Positions 2,900 through 15,792 of a DNA stretch of 38,733 bases are shown here, piece after piece; the stretch's first letter is position 1, and each line of letters starts with the position of its first letter. The translations under genes were made by a program, and so were the position numbers. The notes below the pieces were generated by a model that was not told where the DNA came from, did not search any database, and saw nothing but the letters and a program-made list of their open reading frames with translations. The stretch is from a virus (taxonomy: Duplodnaviria; Heunggongvirae; Uroviricota; Caudoviricetes): IMG/VR virus record IMGVR_UViG_2698536454_000017. The stretch is one strand, 5' to 3'.

Positions 2900-4200
2900 G
2901 CATTCCTTCGCGGTCGCCATTATGGCGATACCAGAGAGCTTTCTGCGTGTACATGCGTCTCTGTAACTTGCTCTCCTTCACTGTGGTTGCAAGTGACATG
3001 CATATCTCCTTCGTTACCGATTAATTCTTTCATCTGACGAATGAATTCTTTGTCTGACCAGTTATCTTTGACATCCTCCACGCCCTAAAGGGCGTGGATT
3101 CCTCCTTCGAGACGGCGATGTCCCGCCGCGAGAATGTTCTTTGCCGCGTTTACGTCGCGGTCGTGGAGTTCACCACATTCCACGCAGATCCATTCTCTTA
3201 TTCCAAGGCCTACCCTACCCTTCGGACTACTGCAGCTAATAGCTCCGCAGCACGAGCAAGTCTGGGTGGTGTACGCTTCATCTACGACCTCAAAAACCAC
3301 ACTCCGCGCAATCGCTTTATACTGAATCTGATTTTTTAGCTGACACCAGCCGGCGTCGTAGATACTTTTTGCCAAATTTGTTTTTGATAACTTTTTACTG
3401 CTTACGTCGCCTACAAAAATAGCGGCGTATTTATTAACCAGCGCCGTAGAAAACTTATGGTGTGCATCTTTACGGCGATTTTTGATTTTTGCGTGGATAG
3501 CTCTAACACGTTTTTTATTATGGGCACGTTGAGCAATTTTTAATTTGCCTTCTAATTCACGATACCAACGTTTAGCAGGAAGTTTTTCACCATCCGAAGT
3601 GGTGGCAATGTCTTTCAGACCAAGATCGATACCCACGTCGGCAGTGCCTTTAGTTGGTTCGCATTCGTATTCAACTGCAACATTGAAATACCAGCGACCG
3701 CGCGCATCTTCTGCAAAGTTACCAGCACGGAATTTAAAGCCATTTAATCCATAGCTATCCCACACTTTGAAATAGTGCCCGGCAAACTTGATGCAGCCGT
3801 TTACCCATTTCACTTGAGCACCTTTGAACGGAACCCAACCAAGACTACGCCCAGCACCGCCACTTTTACGCCAGCGCAGCTTACTGCGTTTAAACTGTTT
3901 ACGCGCTTTAGCGTGATGTTTTGAGATTTCCTGACAAGTAGCTGCTTGTATGTGGTATCCGCGCTCCTTTTGAATACCAGCAATGCGTTTATCTACGTCA
4001 AATTCAGTTAACCAAACTCTTTGTTTTGGTCCGTATTCGCTGACAGTGCTGTATTCAGTCGCAGTCATTTCATTGATAAAGTTAAAAACTTGGTTCACTT
4101 CAAAGGCCATCTGACGCAACAAGGCGGCGTGGCGGTCTTTGACGCGTACCTGCAATGTTTTAGTCTGAATAGCCATTTACTTGCTCCCCTTATTGGTAAA
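2900..4200 (-). mobile_element. IS200/IS605-family insertion element carrying tnpB only (IS1341-like); ends approximate
   Basis: Intact tnpB with no Y1 HUH transposase nearby; perfect hairpin at tnpB stop; located in intergenic position upstream of erf; exact left and right ends not determinable without comparison. Confidence 0.5.
3085..4176 (-). CDS. tnpB: TnpB (IS605 OrfB-family RuvC-like RNA-guided endonuclease), 363 aa
   Basis: Motifs GIDLGLKDIATTSDGEKL (RuvC-I), TTQTCSCCG...CVECG zinc finger, HDRDVNAAKNIL (RuvC-III); GGGGAG SD 7 nt before ATG 4176. Confidence 0.85.
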   Translation of the reverse strand: MAIQTKTLQVRVKDRHAALLRQMAFEVNQVFNFINEMTATEYSTVSEYGPKQRVWLTEFDVDKRIAGIQKERGYHIQAATCQEISKHHAKARKQFKRSKLRWRKSGGAGRSLGWVPFKGAQVKWVNGCIKFAGHYFKVWDSYGLNGFKFRAGNFAEDARGRWYFNVAVEYECEPTKGTADVGIDLGLKDIATTSDGEKLPAKRWYRELEGKLKIAQRAHNKKRVRAIHAKIKNRRKDAHHKFSTALVNKYAAIFVGDVSSKKLSKTNLAKSIYDAGWCQLKNQIQYKAIARSVVFEVVDEAYTTQTCSCCGAISCSSPKGRVGLGIREWICVECGELHDRDVNAAKNILAAGHRRLEGGIHAL

Positions 4201-4373: not shown

Positions 4374-4400
4374 AGGATGCTCCTTCTGTTTGATTGCATA

Positions 4401-4463
4401 ACGAAAACGCCTCGAGTGAAGCGTTATTGGTATGCATATAAAAAGGCCCTCACACTGGAGGGC
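4401..4463 (-). terminator. two tandem hairpins followed by T-runs on the minus strand (tL-like terminators)
   Basis: Minus-strand reading: AACGC-N10-GCGTT then TTTCGTT (4406-4425), and GCCCTC-N6-GAGGGC then CTTTTTAT (4446-4463 plus T-run at 4436-4445). Confidence 0.4.
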
Positions 4464-4557
4464 AAAGAAGATTTCCAATAATCAGAACAAGTCGGCTCCT
4501 GTTTAGTTACGAGCGACATTGCTCACATAGCAGACTCGTAAATCTGCTATAGGCGCT

Positions 4558-4716
4558 TATTCGCATCGCATGACAACATCAAATTTTTCGAGATTACTTT
4601 GTCGCAACAATCCTTCTTCTACGCGGTCAGGTTTTCTATAATTATCAAATTCGAAATGTTTGATTACTTCTTTCGTTTCTCGCTCTATAACTTCAACAAT
4701 GTATTTCTTATTCATC
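4558..4716 (-). CDS. small hypothetical protein (52 aa)
   Basis: Hand translation MNKKYIVEVIERETKEVIKHFEFDNYRKPDRVEEGLLRQSNLEKFDVVMRCE, GGGGAAG upstream, stop TAA at 4560-4558. Confidence 0.3.
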
Positions 4717-4778
4717 ATTCTTCCCCAAGAGCTTTGCTAATTGCTGACTGTGCTTTCGATACTTCATCAGGATAATGG

Positions 4779-5171
4779 TCATTCCAGCTTTGCTTGTATG
4801 CCTTGTTTAGCATCGCTCAGTGGGATATCTCCTTCAGTTCTGACCATTCGCCTTAATACTTTCCTTAAGTCGATGTAAAGTTGAAGGTCTCCATTTGCTG
4901 CGGCATCAGCCATTTTTTGCCTGACAAGCAGTAATGTTTCATACGGCTCAATAAGAATATCGTCATGAGTAATTAGGTGAAGCGTTGCCGCATCAACTAT
5001 TCCTAGAGCTGCGCCAAGTATCAAAAATTCCCTGCTATTTTTGTCGCATGAGGAGATAAGCGTATTTAGCGCATACCTAATATTATTTATAGCTGTTGTT
5101 AATGCTGCAATTTCTTCTATGGCGTCTTCTTCAATGAGCTTTTTAAGCTCATATTTTTCTTCCTGACCCAT
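4779..5171 (-). CDS. hypothetical phage protein (130 aa) directly downstream of N
   Basis: ORF 4779..5255 trimmed to ATG 5171..5169 with GAGG SD; N stop at 5174. Confidence 0.5.
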   Translation of the reverse strand: MGQEEKYELKKLIEEDAIEEIAALTTAINNIRYALNTLISSCDKNSREFLILGAALGIVDAATLHLITHDDILIEPYETLLLVRQKMADAAANGDLQLYIDLRKVLRRMVRTEGDIPLSDAKQGIQAKLE

Positions 5172-5173
5172 AA

Positions 5174-5446
5174 TTACCTCGCCGTCAGTTGTTTTGATTT
5201 CCGGTAGCCTGCCGCGTAAATGGCTACGTTTGGCAGGCAAATACTTCCACTGCATTCATCTGCCTTCTTGCAGCGAAGGCTTCCGAGTGATGCTGCTTTG
5301 TCTGCTCTGACGCAACCAGAGAGCTTTAGCGCAATTTTTCGCGCCAGTCGCTGTTCTTGCATTGCCTGTTCACGTTGAGCCTGTCTGCGTGCTCTGCGGC
5401 GATTTCTGGCGTTATCGTCAGCCAGATATGTAATGACTACTGTCAT
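5174..5446 (-). CDS. N: N-like transcription antitermination protein (90 aa)
   Basis: N-terminal arginine-rich motif DNARNRRRARRQAQREQ typical of lambdoid N proteins; GGAGGT SD; nutL upstream and nutR after cro. Confidence 0.7.
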   Translation of the reverse strand: MTVVITYLADDNARNRRRARRQAQREQAMQEQRLARKIALKLSGCVRADKAASLGSLRCKKADECSGSICLPNVAIYAAGYRKSKQLTAR

Positions 5447-5889: not shown

Positions 5890-5932
5890 TTCCCGCATTT
5901 CGGCGGGACAATCCCATCAATGTTAAAGAGCC
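5890..5932 (-). promoter_or_regulatory. nutL (boxA + boxB) on the leftward transcript
   Basis: Minus-strand GCTCTTTAACA (boxA) then 11 nt then TCCCGC-CGAAAT-GCGGGA hairpin, same loop and stem as the nutR boxB at 7585-7606. Confidence 0.55.
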
Positions 5933-5977
5933 TGCCAATCTGTTCCGTTTGGCTTCCAGCGTCCTGCTGATGGCTAA

Positions 5978-6006
5978 AGAATACTGTAGGTATTTTATTG
6001 TGTAAA
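5978..6006 (-). promoter_or_regulatory. PL-like promoter (minus strand -35 TTTACA, 17-bp spacer, -10 TATTCT)
   Basis: Hexamers read on minus strand; overlapped by operator sites at 5980-5994 and 6005-6019; about 40 nt upstream of nutL boxA. Confidence 0.5.
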
Positions 6007-6064
6007 TACCCAAGGTATTTATTTTTGATGAAATAATGATAAGCAAATGAATACAAAGGATATT
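5980..6064. promoter_or_regulatory. OL operator cluster: three 15-bp sites AATAC-N5-GTATT (third imperfect)
   Basis: 5980-5994 AATACtgtagGTATT; 6005-6019 AATACccaagGTATT; 6050-6064 AATACaaaggATATT. Confidence 0.5.
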
Positions 6065-6150
6065 TATTTTTTCGGTGTCTGCTTGTTCAGTGCTTTTTAT
6101 GCGGGATATGTGAAGTGGATCCCGATAGCTATTGCTGCCGGGATTATAGG

Positions 6151-6519
6151 TTAGTCAGCGAAGGTTAAGACGAGAATTACCTTAATGATATCTGCTACAA
6201 CAGACACGGCCATAGATAAACCAAAGACAATCCAAGCCATAGAGATGTCTTCACTACCATCGTATAGAGTTCCGTAATCACTGGTGTAAGGCGTAAATGT
6301 CGCGCCTTGATACAACAGGTATAAGCTTGAACCATAGAGGATAAATGCAGATATCCCTTGTATTGCTATGATCACTAGAATCATGAAACGAGCTGATCTA
6401 TGCGCCCAAGCCTGGCTTATTTTTTCTGATAGAGATTTCGCAATAAAAGCATGCGCTAAGCCGTAAATTGTCGAGATTGCCAACATCCCAAAAAAGCTTG
6501 CTATAGCGGTTCCAACCAT
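6151..6519 (-). CDS. small multi-pass membrane protein (122 aa) co-transcribed downstream of cI (rexB-like position)
   Basis: ATG 6519..6517 with AAGGGG SD, 18 bp after cI stop; three to four hydrophobic segments (e.g. FMILVIIAIQGISAFILYG, MAWIVFGLSMAVSVVADIIKVILVL). Confidence 0.6.
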   Translation of the reverse strand: MVGTAIASFFGMLAISTIYGLAHAFIAKSLSEKISQAWAHRSARFMILVIIAIQGISAFILYGSSLYLLYQGATFTPYTSDYGTLYDGSEDISMAWIVFGLSMAVSVVADIIKVILVLTFAD

Positions 6520-6536
6520 AATCGCCCCTTGCGTGA

Positions 6537-7253
6537 TCAAACCAGCCTTAGTTTTGTCTCAATTGCAACGCCTATAATCTTGCAGTTTCCATTGATTGGC
6601 ACGAGAGGCCATGCAGGATTAAGTCCCTTGAGGTATTTATTTCCGCCGTCGATTATCAGCTTCTTGAATGTTGCTTCGTTAGAGTCAGAAAGTTTTGCTA
6701 TGACCAAGCTGCCGTTGATCGCCTCCCTTCCGGTATCGAAAAGAACGAATGTTCCCTCTGGAATGCTTAACCCAACCGGTGCCGTCATTGAATCACCTTC
6801 CACTTTAAGCCAGAACGCATTACCTTGAATATGCGCGTCAGACTCAAGCCAAACATCTATGTCTTTAATGGTGTATGGTTCGCATGCTTCACACCACGAG
6901 CCAGCCTGGATACTGCTTAACACCGGATACCTCTTTCCTGCTCTGTATTCCCCTGCATACCTTACGTTGGCATCGCTCTTAAGGCTTTCTGCCTGTTCTG
7001 CAACCTTGGCAGCAATTGACTGGCTAAAATCAGCAATTGAGACTTGCAACAATCGTGCAAAACCAGATGCAACCTCAACGTTTAGCGCATTTCTGCCATT
7101 AAGATAATGCCCTACCGCTCCTTGGGTGATACCCAGTTCATCAGCGATTGAGTATTGGGTTATTCCCAATTCTTTCTTTTTTGACTCATACAAAGCCTTA
7201 AGCCGCTTAGCGTCTTCCAGCTGTTCTGTCGTCAGTGATTTTTTATTTTCCAT
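6537..7253 (-). CDS. cI: CI-type prophage repressor (HTH + S24/LexA-like autocleavage domain), 238 aa
   Basis: Strong resemblance to lambda CI (LTTEQLEDAKRLKALYESKKKELG..., FWLKVEGDSMTAP..., FKKLIIDGG); no SD before ATG 7253, consistent with a leaderless PRM transcript. Confidence 0.9.
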   Translation of the reverse strand: MENKKSLTTEQLEDAKRLKALYESKKKELGITQYSIADELGITQGAVGHYLNGRNALNVEVASGFARLLQVSIADFSQSIAAKVAEQAESLKSDANVRYAGEYRAGKRYPVLSSIQAGSWCEACEPYTIKDIDVWLESDAHIQGNAFWLKVEGDSMTAPVGLSIPEGTFVLFDTGREAINGSLVIAKLSDSNEATFKKLIIDGGNKYLKGLNPAWPLVPINGNCKIIGVAIETKLRLV

Positions 7254-11069: not shown

Positions 11070-11472
11070 CGCCATAGACGCAATACTCTCACTTCCCATC
11101 GACGACAAGTCACCCCACGAAGTCCACCTTAAAGAACCCAAACGCAGCAAAGCGCAGAATGACCGTATGTGGCCGATGCTGAACGATGTTTCGCGTCAGG
11201 TGCTATGGCATGGTCAACGGCTGGCACCGGAAGACTGGAAAGACCTGTTCACTGCCCTGTGGCTTAAGACCAAAAAACTGGAGCAACGAAGTGTTCCTGG
11301 TATCGACGGTGGCGTTGTCATGCTTGGCGTGCGTACCAGCAAAATGCGAAAGGCCAGCATGACTGAGCTTATCGAAATCATGTTCTGGTTCGGCTCAGAG
11401 CGCAACGTGCGGTGGAGTGATGACTCCCGGCGAGAGTATGAATGGTCACAACGAAAAGGGAAGGCTGCATGA
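11026..11472 (+). CDS. ninB: NinB (Orf-family recombination mediator)
   Basis: Resembles lambda NinB (LDQNRKLWA-like KAQNDRMWPMLNDVSRQV, WHG, SKMR motifs); start 11026 or 11041 uncertain. Confidence 0.65.
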   Translation: MKQIYMLRNEAIRNNAIDAILSLPIDDKSPHEVHLKEPKRSKAQNDRMWPMLNDVSRQVLWHGQRLAPEDWKDLFTALWLKTKKLEQRSVPGIDGGVVMLGVRTSKMRKASMTELIEIMFWFGSERNVRWSDDSRREYEWSQRKGKAA

Positions 11473-11996
11473 CTATCAAATCAAATACGCCGGCACACGA
11501 CAAGGACTGCTGGCAAACGCCGCTTTGGCTTTTTGATGCACTGGATATTGAGTTTGGATTCTGGCTGGATTCGGCAGCGAGCGACAAAAATGCTCTGTGT
11601 GCTCACTGGCTAACTGAGGCCGACGACGCGCTCAATTCTGAGTGGGTAAGCCACGGTGCAATCTGGAATAACCCACCGTACAGCAATATCAGGCCGTGGG
11701 TGGAAAAAGCTGCTGAGCAGTGCATACAACAGCGACAGACGGTAGTTATGCTTGTGCCAGAGGATATGTCAGTCGGATGGTTCAGCAAGGCTCTGGAGAG
11801 TGTCGACGAAGTTCGCATCATCACTGATGGACGGATTAATTTTATCGAACCATCGACGGGGCTGGAGAAGAAGGGAAACAGCAAAGGCTCAATGCTGCTG
11901 ATTTGGCGACCGTTCATCAGTCCTCGACGGATGTTTACTACCGTATCCAAAGCGGCATTGATGGCGATCGGGCAGGGCGTCAGGAGGGCGGCATGA
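11469..11996 (+). CDS. orphan DNA N6-adenine methyltransferase (phage Dam-type)
   Basis: NPPYS catalytic motif (DPPY-class), phage Dam-like N-terminus [13 protein letters not shown]; no restriction endonuclease partner adjacent. Confidence 0.7.
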
Positions 11997-12169
11997 GGCG
12001 ACAGCGACGAAGTATCACCGACATAATCTGCGAAAACTGCAAATACCTTCCAACGAAACGCTCCAGAAATAAATCCAAGCCAATCCCAAAAGAATCTGAC
12101 GTAAAAACCTTCAACTACACGGCTCACCTGTGGGATATCCGGTGGCTAAGACATCGTGCGAGGAAATGA
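11993..12169 (+). CDS. small basic protein (58 aa) with CxxC
   Basis: ATG 11993 with AGGAGG SD; ATGA overlap with methyltransferase stop. Confidence 0.35.
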
Positions 12170-12171
12170 CA

Positions 12172-12573
12172 ATGCTTTTAATTCAACCTGGATTTGGACT
12201 TAGCATCAAAAAAGGCCACATGTTTGGCGAGAAAGAGTCACAACGAAAAATGGTGTCTATCCGGTTGCCATTTATCAGTATTTATTGGCTAAACAGGGAG
12301 GCAACAAATTATTGGTATACATGCGCCAGAGCAGCATTTAACGACCCTGACTGGTTTGTGGAAAACCACCACGCAGTTCGTCAGGCAAAGAGAAAGGCCA
12401 ACATGACATACATGAAGGCGTATCGAAAAGCATGGAAAGAACACCGCGATCGATACCAGCAAGATATGGAAAAGCTTGAATCAGAAAACATGGAATTAAG
12501 ACGAAAGCTTGGTGAAGCAAAACGAGACATTGATGCTTACAAGCGACTTTTTAATGGTGAAAGCCATGCTTAG
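12172..12573 (+). CDS. hypothetical nin-region protein (133 aa; start uncertain)
   Basis: ORF 12130..12573 trimmed to ATG 12172 after AGGAA; C-terminal coiled-coil-like segment. Confidence 0.4.
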   Translation: MLLIQPGFGLSIKKGHMFGEKESQRKMVSIRLPFISIYWLNREATNYWYTCARAAFNDPDWFVENHHAVRQAKRKANMTYMKAYRKAWKEHRDRYQQDMEKLESENMELRRKLGEAKRDIDAYKRLFNGESHA

Positions 12574-12742
12574 TCCATCCCAATCTCTTCAATACCAGAA
12601 AGAAAGCGTCGAGCGGGCTTTAACGTGCGCTAACTGCGGTCAGAAGCTGCATGTGCTGGAAGTTCACGTGTGTGAGCACTGCTGCGCAGAGCTGATGAGC
12701 GATCCGAATAGCTCAATGTACGAGGAAGAAGACGATGAATGA
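12566..12742 (+). CDS. NinF-like small zinc-binding protein (58 aa)
   Basis: CANCGQ...HVCEHCCAEL cysteine pattern like lambda NinF; ATG 12566 overlaps upstream stop. Confidence 0.4.
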   Translation: MLSPSQSLQYQKESVERALTCANCGQKLHVLEVHVCEHCCAELMSDPNSSMYEEEDDE

Positions 12743-13457
12743 GTTAATAAATGGCAATGCCATCAAAATGACAAGCATTGAAATCGCTGAGTTGGTGGGT
12801 AAGCGTCATGACAATGTGAAACGTACCATCGAAACGCTGGCTAAAAATGGTGTTATCCGGCTTCCTCAAATTGAGGTTTCCGAAAGAATCAATAACTTAG
12901 GGTTCAATGTTCAGTACGAGCATTACGTCTTCGAGGGCGAACAAGGTAAGCGAGACAGTATTGTCGTTGTTGCCCAGTTGTCGCCAGAGTTCACCGCTCG
13001 CCTTGTTGACCGCTGGCGAGAGCTTGAAGAAGCTGCGGTTAATATCCCCAAAACGCTACCGGAAGCGTTGCGCCTTGCTGCCGATCTTGCTGAGCAGAAA
13101 ATGCAACTGGAAAACCAGCTCGCAATTGCCGCACCTAAAGTTGAGTTTGCCGATCGCGTTGGCGAGGCCAGTGGAATTTTGATTGGAAACTTTGCAAAGG
13201 TTGTTGGAATTGGTCCAAACAAACTGTTTGCGTGGATGCGCGATCACAAAATCCTTATTGCTTCAGGTTCCCGGCGCAATGTGCCAATGCAGGAATATAT
13301 GGAGCGCGGCTATTTCACAGTGAAAGAAACAGCGGTCAACACAAATCACGGAATACAGATATCGTTCACCACAAAAATCACCGGGCGTGGTCAACAGTGG
13401 CTGACCAGAAAGCTGCTCGATAACGGAATGCTGAAAGTAACAGGGGAGGCTGCTTAA
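12735..13457 (+). CDS. Rha-family regulator / antirepressor-like protein
   Basis: N-terminal Rha-like motif NGNAIKMTSIEIAELVGKRHDNVKR and C-terminal Ant/KilAC-like region. Confidence 0.6.
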   Translation: MNELINGNAIKMTSIEIAELVGKRHDNVKRTIETLAKNGVIRLPQIEVSERINNLGFNVQYEHYVFEGEQGKRDSIVVVAQLSPEFTARLVDRWRELEEAAVNIPKTLPEALRLAADLAEQKMQLENQLAIAAPKVEFADRVGEASGILIGNFAKVVGIGPNKLFAWMRDHKILIASGSRRNVPMQEYMERGYFTVKETAVNTNHGIQISFTTKITGRGQQWLTRKLLDNGMLKVTGEAA

Positions 13458-13494
13458 TGGCCAATCTACGCAAAGAAGCACGCGGAGGAAGACG

Positions 13495-14004
13495 ATGGAT
13501 GATGTAAAAGAAAAAGATATCCCCGGGTTTGAGGGTATATATAAAGTAACTGAGAATGGAGACATCATTTCATGCCGTAAATCAAAAAAATTATCTCATG
13601 GTATTAAACCAGGAGGATATGCATTTGTCGGTCTATATCCAGGTGGCGGGAAAAGACCATCATATAAAATGGTTCACAGAATTGTTGCAGAAGTATTTGT
13701 TGATAACCCAGATGGAAAGCCGGAAGTTAATCACAAGGATGGAAATAAACTTAATAATAAAGTTGAAAATCTTGAGTGGGTAACGCGAACAGAAAATGCG
13801 AAACATGGATTTGATTCCGGGTTGCTTGTTCATGGTTTTAATCATCACTTCTGCAAACTAACGCCAGAACAAGTGAAATCAATATATAAATCAAAAGGCA
13901 AATACAGAGATATAGCCAAAGAATTTGGTGTTTGTGCGCAGACAGTGTGCAACATAAAAAACAAATCAGCGTACCGACGTTTTTTGGAGGGGATTGATGT
14001 TTAG
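13495..14004 (+). CDS. free-standing HNH homing endonuclease (NUMOD4-like N-terminus)
   Basis: GFEGIYKVTENGDI (NUMOD4-like), VNHKDGNKLNNKVENLEWVTRTENAKH (HNH); markedly AT-rich relative to flanks. Confidence 0.75.
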   Translation: MDDVKEKDIPGFEGIYKVTENGDIISCRKSKKLSHGIKPGGYAFVGLYPGGGKRPSYKMVHRIVAEVFVDNPDGKPEVNHKDGNKLNNKVENLEWVTRTENAKHGFDSGLLVHGFNHHFCKLTPEQVKSIYKSKGKYRDIAKEFGVCAQTVCNIKNKSAYRRFLEGIDV

Positions 14005-14272
14005 AAGCAAAAAATGGCTTCAGGCAGTCAGGGATATTGAATTTTGCGTTCTTTGCGGAAGATACGGAGTTCAGGCCGCTCACAGAAATGAAGGGAAGGG
14101 GGTTGGGATTAAAGTAGATGATTGCCTTACTGCTGCGCTATGTGTTGATTGTCATTCAAGAATTGATAATGGAAGAGATATGAGCAGGGAAGAGCGAAGG
14201 GCTGAAATGGATCGGGCCATTGTGCTTACCCTTAAAAAATTGGTTAACAATGGGAGGGTGTTTGTCCAATGA
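13997..14272 (+). CDS. small Cys/His-rich phage protein (DUF1364-like)
   Basis: CVLCG...AAHRNEG...CVDCHSRIDNG pattern; ATG 13997 overlaps HNH stop. Confidence 0.45.
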   Translation: MFRSKKWLQAVRDIEFCVLCGRYGVQAAHRNEGKGVGIKVDDCLTAALCVDCHSRIDNGRDMSREERRAEMDRAIVLTLKKLVNNGRVFVQ

Positions 14273-14631
14273 ACGAATATCAGTTTGTGCTTCCGTACCC
14301 ACCGTCGGTGAATACCTACTGGCGAAGACGGGGAAGCCAATACTACATCAGCGATAAAGGCCAGAAATACCGAAAAGACGTTCAGCAAATCATCCGCCAA
14401 CTTAAGTTAGACATTTTCACCAAATCACGACTCCGCATCAAAGTCATCGCAGACGTTCCAGACTCCCGCCGCCGCGACCTCGACAACATCCTGAAAGGTT
14501 TACTCGACTCCCTTATCCACGCCGGATTTGCGGAAGACGACGAGCAATTCGATGACATTCGCGTAATTCGTGGTGTGAAAGTACCAGGCGGACGGCTTGG
14601 AATAAAAATCACCGAACTGGAGAACGTATGA
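14269..14631 (+). CDS. rusA: RusA Holliday-junction resolvase
   Basis: 120 aa, strong resemblance to E. coli RusA (LPYPPSVNTYWRRRG, DVPDSRRRDLDN, GGRLGIKITE). Confidence 0.85.
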   Translation: MNEYQFVLPYPPSVNTYWRRRGSQYYISDKGQKYRKDVQQIIRQLKLDIFTKSRLRIKVIADVPDSRRRDLDNILKGLLDSLIHAGFAEDDEQFDDIRVIRGVKVPGGRLGIKITELENV

Positions 14632-14816
14632 ACGCCACAATTCAAACGATACCAGAGCTTCTTATCCAGACACGAAGCAATCAGACCGAAGTGGCGAGGA
14701 TGCTTTCCTGCGCAAGAGGAACAGTGCTCAAGTACAACCGAGACAGAAAAGGCGAGCGTCACGTAATAGTTAACGGCGTCCTGATGGTCAAACAGGGCAA
14801 GAGGGGAAGACGATGA
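14628..14816 (+). CDS. ninH: NinH-like protein
   Basis: TIPELLIQTRSNQTEVARMLSCARGTVLKY resembles lambda NinH. Confidence 0.6.
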   Translation: MNATIQTIPELLIQTRSNQTEVARMLSCARGTVLKYNRDRKGERHVIVNGVLMVKQGKRGRR

Positions 14817-15301
14817 GCATAAGAGAACTAAACCTCACCAAAGAACAGCACGATTGGCTGAATGGCTGGCTTGAACTGTGGGGCGCATGGGTTTATTCAG
14901 GTCGTCTGGAAAAGCGCATGAGCAGCGTAATAGCGAAGTTCATGGAGAGCGTAGAGCCGGGAAGAGTTATGACAAGGCCAATGTGTAATGATGATGATGG
15001 AATGTTGATTTCTCAGGTCGTCGATTCCGTCATGTGCATTGACAAGAAAGCCTTTGGCATCCTCCTCAGCTACTACGCTCATGGATCTTCCAAGCATGCC
15101 ATTGCATCTTACTATCATCGTGTCGCAAGACCTCGCAAGATGTTATGCCGGGGCGGCGGGCGTATTCAAAAACCATCGCTCGCAACCTGTCGCCGGGAAG
15201 TTGACGAAATCCTCAATGCTTCGTTGTTTATGATTTACCCAGTTCTGGATAGTGCGTTTAAAAACCGGAAACGTGTAGAGAAAATTAAACATGTAGCATA
15301 G
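14813..15301 (+). CDS. Q: late-gene antiterminator Q (phage 21/82-type, 162 aa)
   Basis: Position last in the nin operon directly upstream of the late/lysis region; size and context match the small Q class; sequence identity not verified. Confidence 0.55.
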   Translation: MSIRELNLTKEQHDWLNGWLELWGAWVYSGRLEKRMSSVIAKFMESVEPGRVMTRPMCNDDDGMLISQVVDSVMCIDKKAFGILLSYYAHGSSKHAIASYYHRVARPRKMLCRGGGRIQKPSLATCRREVDEILNASLFMIYPVLDSAFKNRKRVEKIKHVA

Positions 15302-15347
15302 AACGTGTTGACATCATTGAGCAAATGAGCAACACTATTCGCATAAG

Positions 15348-15389
15348 CTGCCGTTAGTGACTCTTAAGTTGCAACGGTGGCTTTTTTTA
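15348..15389 (+). terminator. hairpin plus T7 run downstream of Q (tR-prime-like terminator)
   Basis: CTGCCGTT...AACGGTGG stem then CTTTTTTT (15381-15388); consensus -35 TTGACA at 15308-15313 upstream but no convincing -10. Confidence 0.35.
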
Positions 15390-15392
15390 TTT

Positions 15393-15467
15393 GGGTCAGT
15401 CGTATAAAGGTCATTACGGAATGCTGTTAACCTTCTTATCGTGGTTCGAGTCCACGCTGTCCCGCCA
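15393..15467 (+). tRNA. tRNA-Asn-like (anticodon GUU), divergent
   Basis: Hand-folded cloverleaf: T-arm CGTGG-TTCGAGT-CCACG, anticodon loop CTGTTAA, 3-prime CCA encoded; one mismatch each in acceptor and anticodon stems, so possibly a pseudo-tRNA. Confidence 0.45.
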
Positions 15468-15472
15468 AACAT

Positions 15473-15548
15473 GCTGGTTTAGCTCCAATGGTAGAGCAGT
15501 CGCCTTGTAAGCGAATGGGTAGCGGTTCAAGTCCGTTAACCAGCACCA
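15473..15548 (+). tRNA. tRNA-Thr (anticodon UGU)
   Basis: Hand-folded: acceptor GCTGGTT/AACCAGC, D-arm GCTC-CAATGGTA-GAGC, anticodon loop CTTGTAA, T-arm AGCGG-TTCAAGT-CCGTT, CCA encoded. Confidence 0.6.
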
Positions 15549-15792
15549 TAACTGAGCCGTAGCCACTGGCTATCCTGAATTCATCAGTGATAGTTACGCT
15601 GCGGCCTTCTACACATGACCTTCGTGAAAGCGGGTGGCATGAGGTTGCGCTAACAACCTCCTGCCGTTTTGCCCGTGCATATCGGTCACGAACAAATCTG
15701 ATTACTAAACACAGTAGCCTGGATTTGTTCTATCAGTAATCGACCTTATTCCTAATTAAATAGAGCAAATCCCCTCAATGAAGGGGTAGAGC

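Follow-up and report, generated by a model that had tools for sequence, protein, structure and literature searches.

A free-standing I-HmuI-type HNH homing endonuclease gene and a linked nuclease gene in the place of hkbD in a lambdoid nin region

Much is known about the homing endonucleases of T-even, SPO1-like and lactococcal phages; their role in driving the mosaicism of temperate lambdoid phages has, to our knowledge, received hardly any attention. The locus described here raises the question of how an HNH endonuclease gene of conspicuously low GC content came to stand in the nin region of such a phage, and whether its own product may have brought it there. The window, by which we mean the whole stretch of 38,733 nt that was analysed (IMG/VR record IMGVR_UViG_2698536454_000017), comes from an HK620-like (Lederbergvirus-type) lambdoid phage of E. 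coli. An earlier sequence-only reading had described a free-standing, selfish endonuclease gene that was recently inserted among the nin genes. The genes around the locus are, in order, Dam, ninE, a 147-aa ORF, ninF, roi, HNH, a 91-aa gene, rusA, ninH and Q, and the features on which the argument turns are these:

11442-11996: Dam, a nin-region neighbour of the HNH gene
12572-12742, + strand: ninF, whose native 3' end (12728-12742, GAAGACGATGAATGA) overlaps the start of roi
12735-13457, + strand: roi/ant, Rha + KilAC antirepressor (Pfam ANT, 9.8e-33, and Phage_pRha)
13457-13485, + strand: 29-nt 5' stub of hkbD (YbcO family), with contiguous homology to hkbD loci
13486-13502, + strand: copy of the ninF 3' end fused to the stub (15-nt repeat)
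13495-14004, + strand: HNH endonuclease gene, ATG start, 169 aa
13997-14272, + strand: 91-aa Cys/His-rich gene ("D1364b"; phrog_131, 1.5e-30)
14269-14631, + strand: rusA, the right flank (Pfam RusA, 1.1e-16)
14628-14816: ninH, nin-region neighbour
14813-15301: Q, nin-region neighbour

The nin-region gene and its product

The neighbours ninE, ninF, roi, rusA, ninH and Q confirm the nin-region setting that the sequence-only reading had proposed. Between ninE and ninF lies the 147-aa ORF (12130-12573, + strand; phrog_1511, GC 0.43), which is of unknown function and is missing in HK620 and HK97, whose ninE and ninF are directly adjacent; at related loci the slot is empty or taken by NinX.

The 169-aa ORF had been credited with a NUMOD4-like N-terminus and an HNH motif, and both domains are found above their Pfam gathering scores (NUMOD4, residues 7-48, E=1.1e-6; HNH_3, residues 58-102, E=2.8e-11), together with a weak helix-turn-helix-like Pfam signal at residues 139-157. 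A phmmer search of the PDB gave a single strong match, I-HmuI of Bacillus phage SPO1 (1U3E; E=9.3e-19, residues 6-121), and the protein also matches phrog_59 (E=1.9e-50). RefSeq already names the product a NUMOD4 motif-containing HNH endonuclease, PADLOC returns generic homing-endonuclease models only ("HEase", 8.5e-25), and NCBIfam has no model for either this protein or the 91-aa protein. Residues H80, N92 and N101 align with H75, N87 and N96 of I-HmuI, and these catalytic columns are invariant across 22 homologues. The I-HmuI metal ligand Asp74 is replaced by Asn79 in the HNH protein and in all 22 relatives, and because of this replacement its nuclease activity is an assumption throughout what follows.

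An AlphaFold2 model derived from the 22 homologues (mean pLDDT 88.5) has helices at residues 124-132, 137-144, 148-155 and 161-166, and a Foldseek search of the PDB returned 1U3E as the sole significant match (E=1.3e-9, probability 1.0). With 165 aligned columns, this match indicates that the architecture is shared throughout; as modelled, the protein consists of NUMOD4/N-terminal strands, a beta-beta-alpha-metal core, a helical linker and a C-terminal helix-turn-helix domain. It therefore combines an HNH core containing the catalytic His and distal Asn with an N-terminal NUMOD4-type module and a C-terminal HTH, in keeping with the HNH_3/I-HmuI-like homing endonucleases, which form group 2 of the His-Me finger nucleases (PMC5714182). 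An Rfam search of 12500-15700 found no group I intron, so that the gene is free-standing: it lies between genes, outside any intron or intein, as an ORF of its own with its own translation signals. On its sequence and predicted fold, both homologous to those of I-HmuI, we identify it as a free-standing I-HmuI-type HNH homing endonuclease gene.

The likeness to I-HmuI extends to size (174 aa, against 169 aa here) and to the order of the parts, namely an N-terminal beta-strand DNA-binding region, an HNH core with catalytic His and distal Asn, a helical linker and a C-terminal HTH. In contrast to the free-standing gene of the window, I-HmuI is encoded within a group I intron; its target is a DNA polymerase gene, whereas the target here would lie in the nin region; and, besides the difference in the metal ligand (Asp74 there, Asn79 here), the two proteins are ~29-40% identical.

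The gene was also said to be AT-rich relative to its flanks, and its composition is indeed deviant (GC 0.367 versus 0.479 for the whole window, z=-3.3). Windows of 510 nt with a GC content as low make up 0.05% of the total, the global minimum (at 13505) falls within the gene, and its GC3 is 0.27, compared with 0.49-0.59 for roi, ninF, rusA and ninH. Among 24 window-type copies the variable sites comprise 16 synonymous and 5 non-synonymous ones, and between diverged lineages dN is 0.23-0.31 with dS saturated; judged by these substitution patterns, the gene is maintained by purifying selection.

HNH proteins serve other purposes in lambdoid phages as well, HK97 gp74 being one with a role in packaging. 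A packaging-associated function of the HK97 gp74 or GVE2-like kind, beside terminase and for DNA maturation, would thus have a parallel in this group of phages. The present gene, however, sits among the early-right nin genes, a long way from terminase, belongs to a different family (HNH_3 plus NUMOD4, I-HmuI-like) and is missing in almost all close relatives, whose packaging is normal. The packaging-type HNH class adjoins TerL (PMC12724721), and the position and sporadic distribution of the gene effectively refute such a role, to which we attach a negligible probability.

Elsewhere in the window, the early-left region contains a TnpB-type RNA-guided nuclease gene of the IS200/IS605 family (3085-4176, - strand, 363 aa), with Pfam matches to OrfB_IS605 (9.9e-13) and to a Cas12f1-like TNB domain (2.9e-21); a stretch of low GC comes after it (4387-5202). 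Another low-GC (<0.40) stretch (5915-6525) overlaps a 129-aa membrane-like ORF (6151-6540, - strand) that has no Pfam match and lies beside a cI-like repressor gene. Two tRNA genes, Asn(GTT) at 15393-15467 and Thr(TGT) at 15473-15548 (both + strand), are situated between Q and the lysis genes.

Replacement of hkbD and the left-hand junction

The sequence-only reading held that the gene was inserted in the nin region; instead, the HNH and 91-aa genes replace hkbD. In BLAST comparisons with HK620, HK97 and 80 more hkbD loci, homology extends up to 13485 and comes back at 14269, the first base of rusA. The left flank (12600-13485) is 98.6% identical to HK620, and the right flank (14269-14817) matches HK620 and HK97 at 97-98%. 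Between these breaks, 13486-14268, made up of the two genes and of low GC in both (0.435 for the 91-aa gene), has taken the place of the other 262 nt of hkbD, from which it follows that the HNH and 91-aa genes came jointly and replaced it. Simple insertion between resident genes was considered and rejected, since the 91-aa gene is 28% identical to HK620 hkbD and homology resumes only at rusA.

The overlap of 8 nt with the downstream Cys/His-rich gene, as originally described, is exact by the start and stop coordinates (HNH stop TAG at 14002-14004, ATG of the 91-aa gene at 13997). A GGAGGGG at 13986-13992, inside the HNH 3' end, lies upstream of that start, and translational coupling of the 91-aa gene to the HNH gene is likely from this layout. 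At 18.9 bits against a cut-off of 29.9, the 91-aa protein does not reach the gathering score of Pfam PF07102 (YbcO); its Pfam matches to DUF968 and YbcO are weak, and hhalign aligns it to the YbcO profile over the catalytic core only (probability 94.5%, E=7.7e-8). Members of the YbcO/DUF1364 family are His-Me finger nucleases akin to Ref of phage P1 (PMC5714182, PMC4999995), and on these similarities the 91-aa gene is best treated as encoding a small His-Me finger nuclease of a related but separate subfamily (phrog_131) beside YbcO/HkbD.

The left-hand junction retains more detail. The hkbD stub at 13457-13485 is identical at 29 of 29 positions to an extant intact hkbD allele (loci L101, L119 and L005), and opens an out-of-frame mini-ORF of 16 codons (13457-13507; MANLRKEARGGRRWMM and then a stop). 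Behind the stub follows a second copy of the end of ninF: the 15-nt sequence GAAGACGATGRATGA occurs in the window only at 12728-12742 and 13488-13502, where chance would yield an expectation of 0, and 17 of the 21 positions of 13478-13498 agree with the ninF end in an ungapped alignment. The HNH ribosome-binding region (GGAGG, 13484-13488, 6 nt 5' of the ATG) and the start codon both lie within this copy. The HNH-free phages HK620 and HK97 have the same ninF end as the window, and sequence identity marks 12728-12742 as the source copy of the fragment that precedes the HNH gene.

Homology to the ninF-HNH-91aa-rusA arrangement of E. coli 042 and Dewey begins at 13480. Because the ninF end is native to HNH-free phages, we infer a ninF-HNH donor for the cassette, whose junction with nt 29 of hkbD would have formed at microhomology. 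Such a donor would have been arranged ninF-HNH-D1364b-rusA, as in E. coli 042 and Dewey, and ~17-21 nt of the ninF 3' end would have been carried along. A haplotype matrix places the window-type and 042-type copies in two sister clades with no nesting and so fits either direction of change; that from 042 type to window type is favoured solely on account of the duplicated native ninF end in the window, and by the reverse route the loss of roi through deletion between the repeats would restore the 042 type. The window junction is a single case, 16 nt upstream of the canonical ybcO junction found in sister lineages, and as its position suggests it is a second event in the same short ybcO 5' region.

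Lambdoid nin regions are mosaic anyway, with exchange at gene borders, so that variable flanks alone are no proof of mobility driven by an endonuclease. The HNH and 91-aa pair could accordingly be an interchangeable nin module, moved by general or illegitimate recombination at gene borders, with the endonuclease uninvolved and maybe inactive on phage DNA. Consistent with this explanation, breakpoints are found at gene borders (the start of rusA at 14269, and the stub start and D1364b end when loci L010 and L011 are compared), adjacent nin slots vary too (orf147 or NinX; Dam or none; three Q types), and the Asp metal ligand has given way to Asn79. Against it, the left junctions lie within ybcO genes (at nt 29 in the window, at nt 45 in many lineages and at ~codon 48 in L043), the HNH ORF is under purifying selection, and its close structural relatives are proven homing enzymes. 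We consider ordinary mosaicism an unlikely account of the locus, and the distribution of the gene, which is sporadic and includes decayed copies in the way that is classic for homing endonuclease genes as they come and go, also argues for homing instead.

Distribution, decay and partner genes

Comparison with related phages, which the sequence-only reading had suggested as a check, shows that the HNH gene is polymorphic and that empty-site alleles are many (HK620, HK97 and HK022 among them). Only Dewey and Louie carry it among the 242 phage records that match the flanks, the HNH-free order roi-hkbD-rusA being found in HK620, HK633, CUS-3, Kapi1, N7, HK97, HK022, mEpX1/2 and others; at least 590 loci in IMG/VR have an intact ybcO/hkbD-type gene. 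Of 5426 complete E. coli genomes, 37 have the 91-aa gene, 33 of them together with a full-length HNH gene. Three E. coli genomes (RM8082, DETEC-S565 and NCTC9104) lack HNH and have the 91-aa gene (98.5% identical) directly 3' of a ninF-like gene. Presence and absence thus alternate at one locus, with roi-hkbD-rusA, the ninF'-D1364b-rusA of RM8082-type genomes and occupied loci all represented. EC.P3 and phiKp_30, examined as further alleles with D1364b and without HNH, were rejected, both having an ordinary hkbD of 96 aa. None of the empty-site phages found is isogenic, flank identity reaching ~98.5-99% at best, and a search of complete E. coli genomes for the empty site of the L010-type cassette matched only the ninF/NinX flank.

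Degenerate copies are found as well. In AH19B041 (L008), the one other E. coli genome among the 37, an in-frame deletion of 330 nt has left the NUMOD4 part of the HNH gene alone, and in L048 an IS element disrupts the gene after codon 47. The interruption lies at 3141-3412 of that locus, and the transposase ORF of the element starts MTKNTRFSPEVRQRAV. All 21 IMG/VR loci with a window-type 91-aa gene have HNH, one of them internally deleted (L056, on the same contig as L047, with apparently the same internal deletion as in AH19B041); where the 91-aa gene is 77-81% identical, HNH is missing in 18 of 20 IMG/VR loci. Sporadic spread together with decayed copies is, as read from these sequences, the pattern expected of a selfish endonuclease gene, and with its I-HmuI-type product, abundant empty sites and no intron nearby, the gene deserves the description of free-standing and selfish that it was first given. 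Few loci have the roi-stub-HNH arrangement (the window, QML220601, and IMG/VR loci L019 and L020), and it looks derived. In L020, rusA (3775-4062) matches residues 1-50 only and appears truncated or rearranged.

The closest relatives of the HNH protein, 53-75% identical, come from E. coli, Salmonella, Citrobacter, Klebsiella aerogenes, Superficieibacter and metagenomes, and a scan of GTDB species representatives added one further locus, in Superficieibacter. With the exception of L017, where a 56-aa ORF follows, the HNH gene is immediately 5' of, and overlaps, a small His-Me nuclease gene at all loci examined. Three kinds of downstream partner occur, namely the 91-aa type (62-81% identical), a full ybcO type (L042/L043) and a Ref-like RecA_dep_nuc (L040, L041, L094-L099). 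The outer neighbours vary, with ninF, unknown ORFs, a C5 methylase, DUF1367 or NinB upstream and RusA or Q downstream. As diverged relatives are built alike, the association of HNH with a nuclease gene must be old; a literature search found no description of an HNH/YbcO association.

The upstream side of these relatives is also distinctive. A YbcO N-terminal signature, M-A/S-N/D/K-L-R/T-K-x-A-R-G-R-E/D-C-Q-V, opens ~17 of the 25 closest homologues. In those that bear it, the stub corresponds to the first 45 nt of a ybcO/hkbD gene and the junction always comes directly after GAATGCCAGGTN, so that sister lineages have a common junction after codon 15 (...GAATGCCAGGT). In L043, where the junction is at ~codon 48 of ybcO, Pfam YbcO positions 2-49 (E=2.8e-15) are in frame with NUMOD4 and HNH_3, and a separate full-length ybcO is next. 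Over 800 nt the stub-HNH-91aa modules of L010 and L011 are nearly identical (~20 differences); the genes upstream of them are unrelated, and their rusA genes are ~50% divergent. The upstream flank of L011 has ~5 differences in 26 nt from one that lies next to an intact hkbD at a locus without HNH. The recurring design, as the sequences present it, is a ybcO 5' fragment, then HNH, then a complete small nuclease gene.

The same comparison bears on the claim that the gene was acquired recently. In every lineage the HNH body forms a local GC trough, even where HNH itself reaches 53-55% and the flanks 60-63% GC, so that low GC is a standing property of the family and gives no date for the acquisition. 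With 53-75% identical homologues likewise placed in several genera, the claim of recency is not upheld.

The 91-aa gene accompanies every window-type HNH copy, with sharp module boundaries, a pattern that co-conversion of the flanks with the endonuclease gene would produce and that ordinary module exchange could give as well. The association might alternatively represent a cooperating two-gene system that is kept for the benefit of the phage, either in recombination or replication restart with RusA or as a weapon against co-infecting phages and resident prophages. Strict adjacency and translational overlap of HNH and its partner in all lineages, long-term purifying selection on both genes and a neighbourhood of recombination genes (PMC5714182) would fit such a system. 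However, the 91-aa gene often stands without HNH (in 3 E. coli genomes and 18 loci of IMG/VR), some HNH copies carry a deletion or an IS insertion next to an intact 91-aa gene, the same HNH clade pairs with three nuclease families, and PADLOC recognises the protein by nothing other than generic "homing endonuclease" models. Cooperation between the two genes for the good of the phage is therefore quite improbable in our judgement.

Other HNH genes were observed in the same group of loci. A second, unrelated HNH gene (~168 aa) lies at 2299-3008 of L032, and also in L047 and L063, just 5' of the ninF-HNH cassette and flanked by two copies of ninF that are partial or duplicated; it has the same design of fragment, HNH and full target gene, with a different gene. 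Further HNH genes, ~33-40% identical, occur 3' of Q or elsewhere (L008, 3697-4209; L034 and L036, 5128-5637; N7, HZ41 and ST-35). HK620-like phages and prophages are thus repeatedly colonised by HNH endonuclease genes, at several sites.

Predicted homing at the 5' end of ybcO/hkbD

We put at roughly 70% the probability that the locus holds an active free-standing I-HmuI-type endonuclease, in a ~0.8-kb cassette with the 91-aa gene, which spreads by intronless homing at the 5' end of ybcO/hkbD, a reading that joins the sequence patterns above to analogy with characterised enzymes. Intronless homing, or localized marker exclusion, would spread the cassette among lambdoid genomes in the following way. 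The enzyme would introduce a nick or a cut into a lambdoid genome that lacks HNH, at the 5' end of a ybcO/hkbD-type gene or close to it, the primary lesion probably being, by analogy with I-HmuI, a single-strand nick that replication turns into a break. Repair of the break from an HNH-bearing genome would then copy the endonuclease gene and the linked nuclease gene, with the right-hand crossover in rusA and the left-hand crossover in the short ybcO 5' homology or, as in the window, at microhomology. The linked nuclease gene lacks the target sequence and so would escape cutting; in the alignment of the 91-aa protein with HK620 HkbD a gap falls exactly at RECQ, and sequence resembling the hkbD target is absent elsewhere in the window.

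It is the junction positions, and these alone, that point to a target at the ybcO/hkbD 5' end. In 80 hkbD loci, 93-99% identical throughout, nucleotide conservation at the hkbD 5' end is not clearly above that in the rest of the gene, and since the common ninF-HNH arrangement has no ybcO stub, a ybcO target for that sub-lineage depends on the one junction in the window.

Precedents for intronless homing and marker exclusion are provided by the Seg and Mob endonucleases of T4 (PMC2988022, PMC2790892). SegF, SegG, SegB and MobE are encoded between or beside genes, cleave a relative without the endonuclease close to that place, and the flanking allele is co-converted in the repair (PMC2988022, PMC2790892, PMC2330249), so that a linked neighbour travels along, as the 91-aa gene does with HNH. 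The Seg proteins differ in being GIY-YIG enzymes, and MobE is an HNH enzyme of another subgroup; their setting is T-even, whereas here it is a temperate lambdoid phage or prophage in which cleavage is presumed by analogy; and the co-transferred allele is near-identical in T4, whereas here it is a very divergent paralogue (28%) or belongs to another nuclease family.

The I-HmuI-like HNH endonucleases of lactococcal Skunavirus phages share the fold family, the sporadic number and location, the location-tied phylogenetic clusters and the frequent truncated copies, and marker exclusion has been experimentally observed for them (PMC12724721). The HNH gene has short DNA-level similarity to lactococcal genes. 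Hosts and insertion sites differ, and no ybcO-type stub has been described in Skunavirus. A parallel to the stub is gene 31 of the P22-like Salmonella phage epsilon34, where an eaE-like N-terminus of a resident gene is fused in frame to HNH (PMC2629481), which is the architecture of the ybcO-stub-HNH ORFs in sister lineages. In contrast, gene 31 lies in the early-left ea region and involves another target gene, and the stub of the window is out of frame, its HNH having a start codon of its own.

More tentatively, the HNH clade could be a cleave-and-replace element, which cuts the ybcO/hkbD of competitors after codon 15 and installs itself together with an equivalent nuclease gene without the cut sequence, the 45-nt stub serving as both translation start and left homology arm. 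The competitors may be lambdoid phages and prophages, the replacing nuclease genes may be D1364b, the Ref-like RecA-dependent nuclease and divergent ybcO, and the stub, an arm of recombineering length, may equip the element for the next round. We regard this extension as possible, and doubtful as yet.

The locus offers a testable case of homing, with a defined cassette, culturable donors (Dewey and Louie), abundant recipients (HK620, HK97 and HK022) and a predicted target of ~40 nt, and the association with the ybcO family is the part that is worth an experiment. Should the target prediction be false, what is left is routine annotation. Should it be true, the enzyme would have a new I-HmuI-type specificity, and part of the nin mosaic of lambdoid phages would be the product of endonuclease-driven gene replacement rather than of random recombination.
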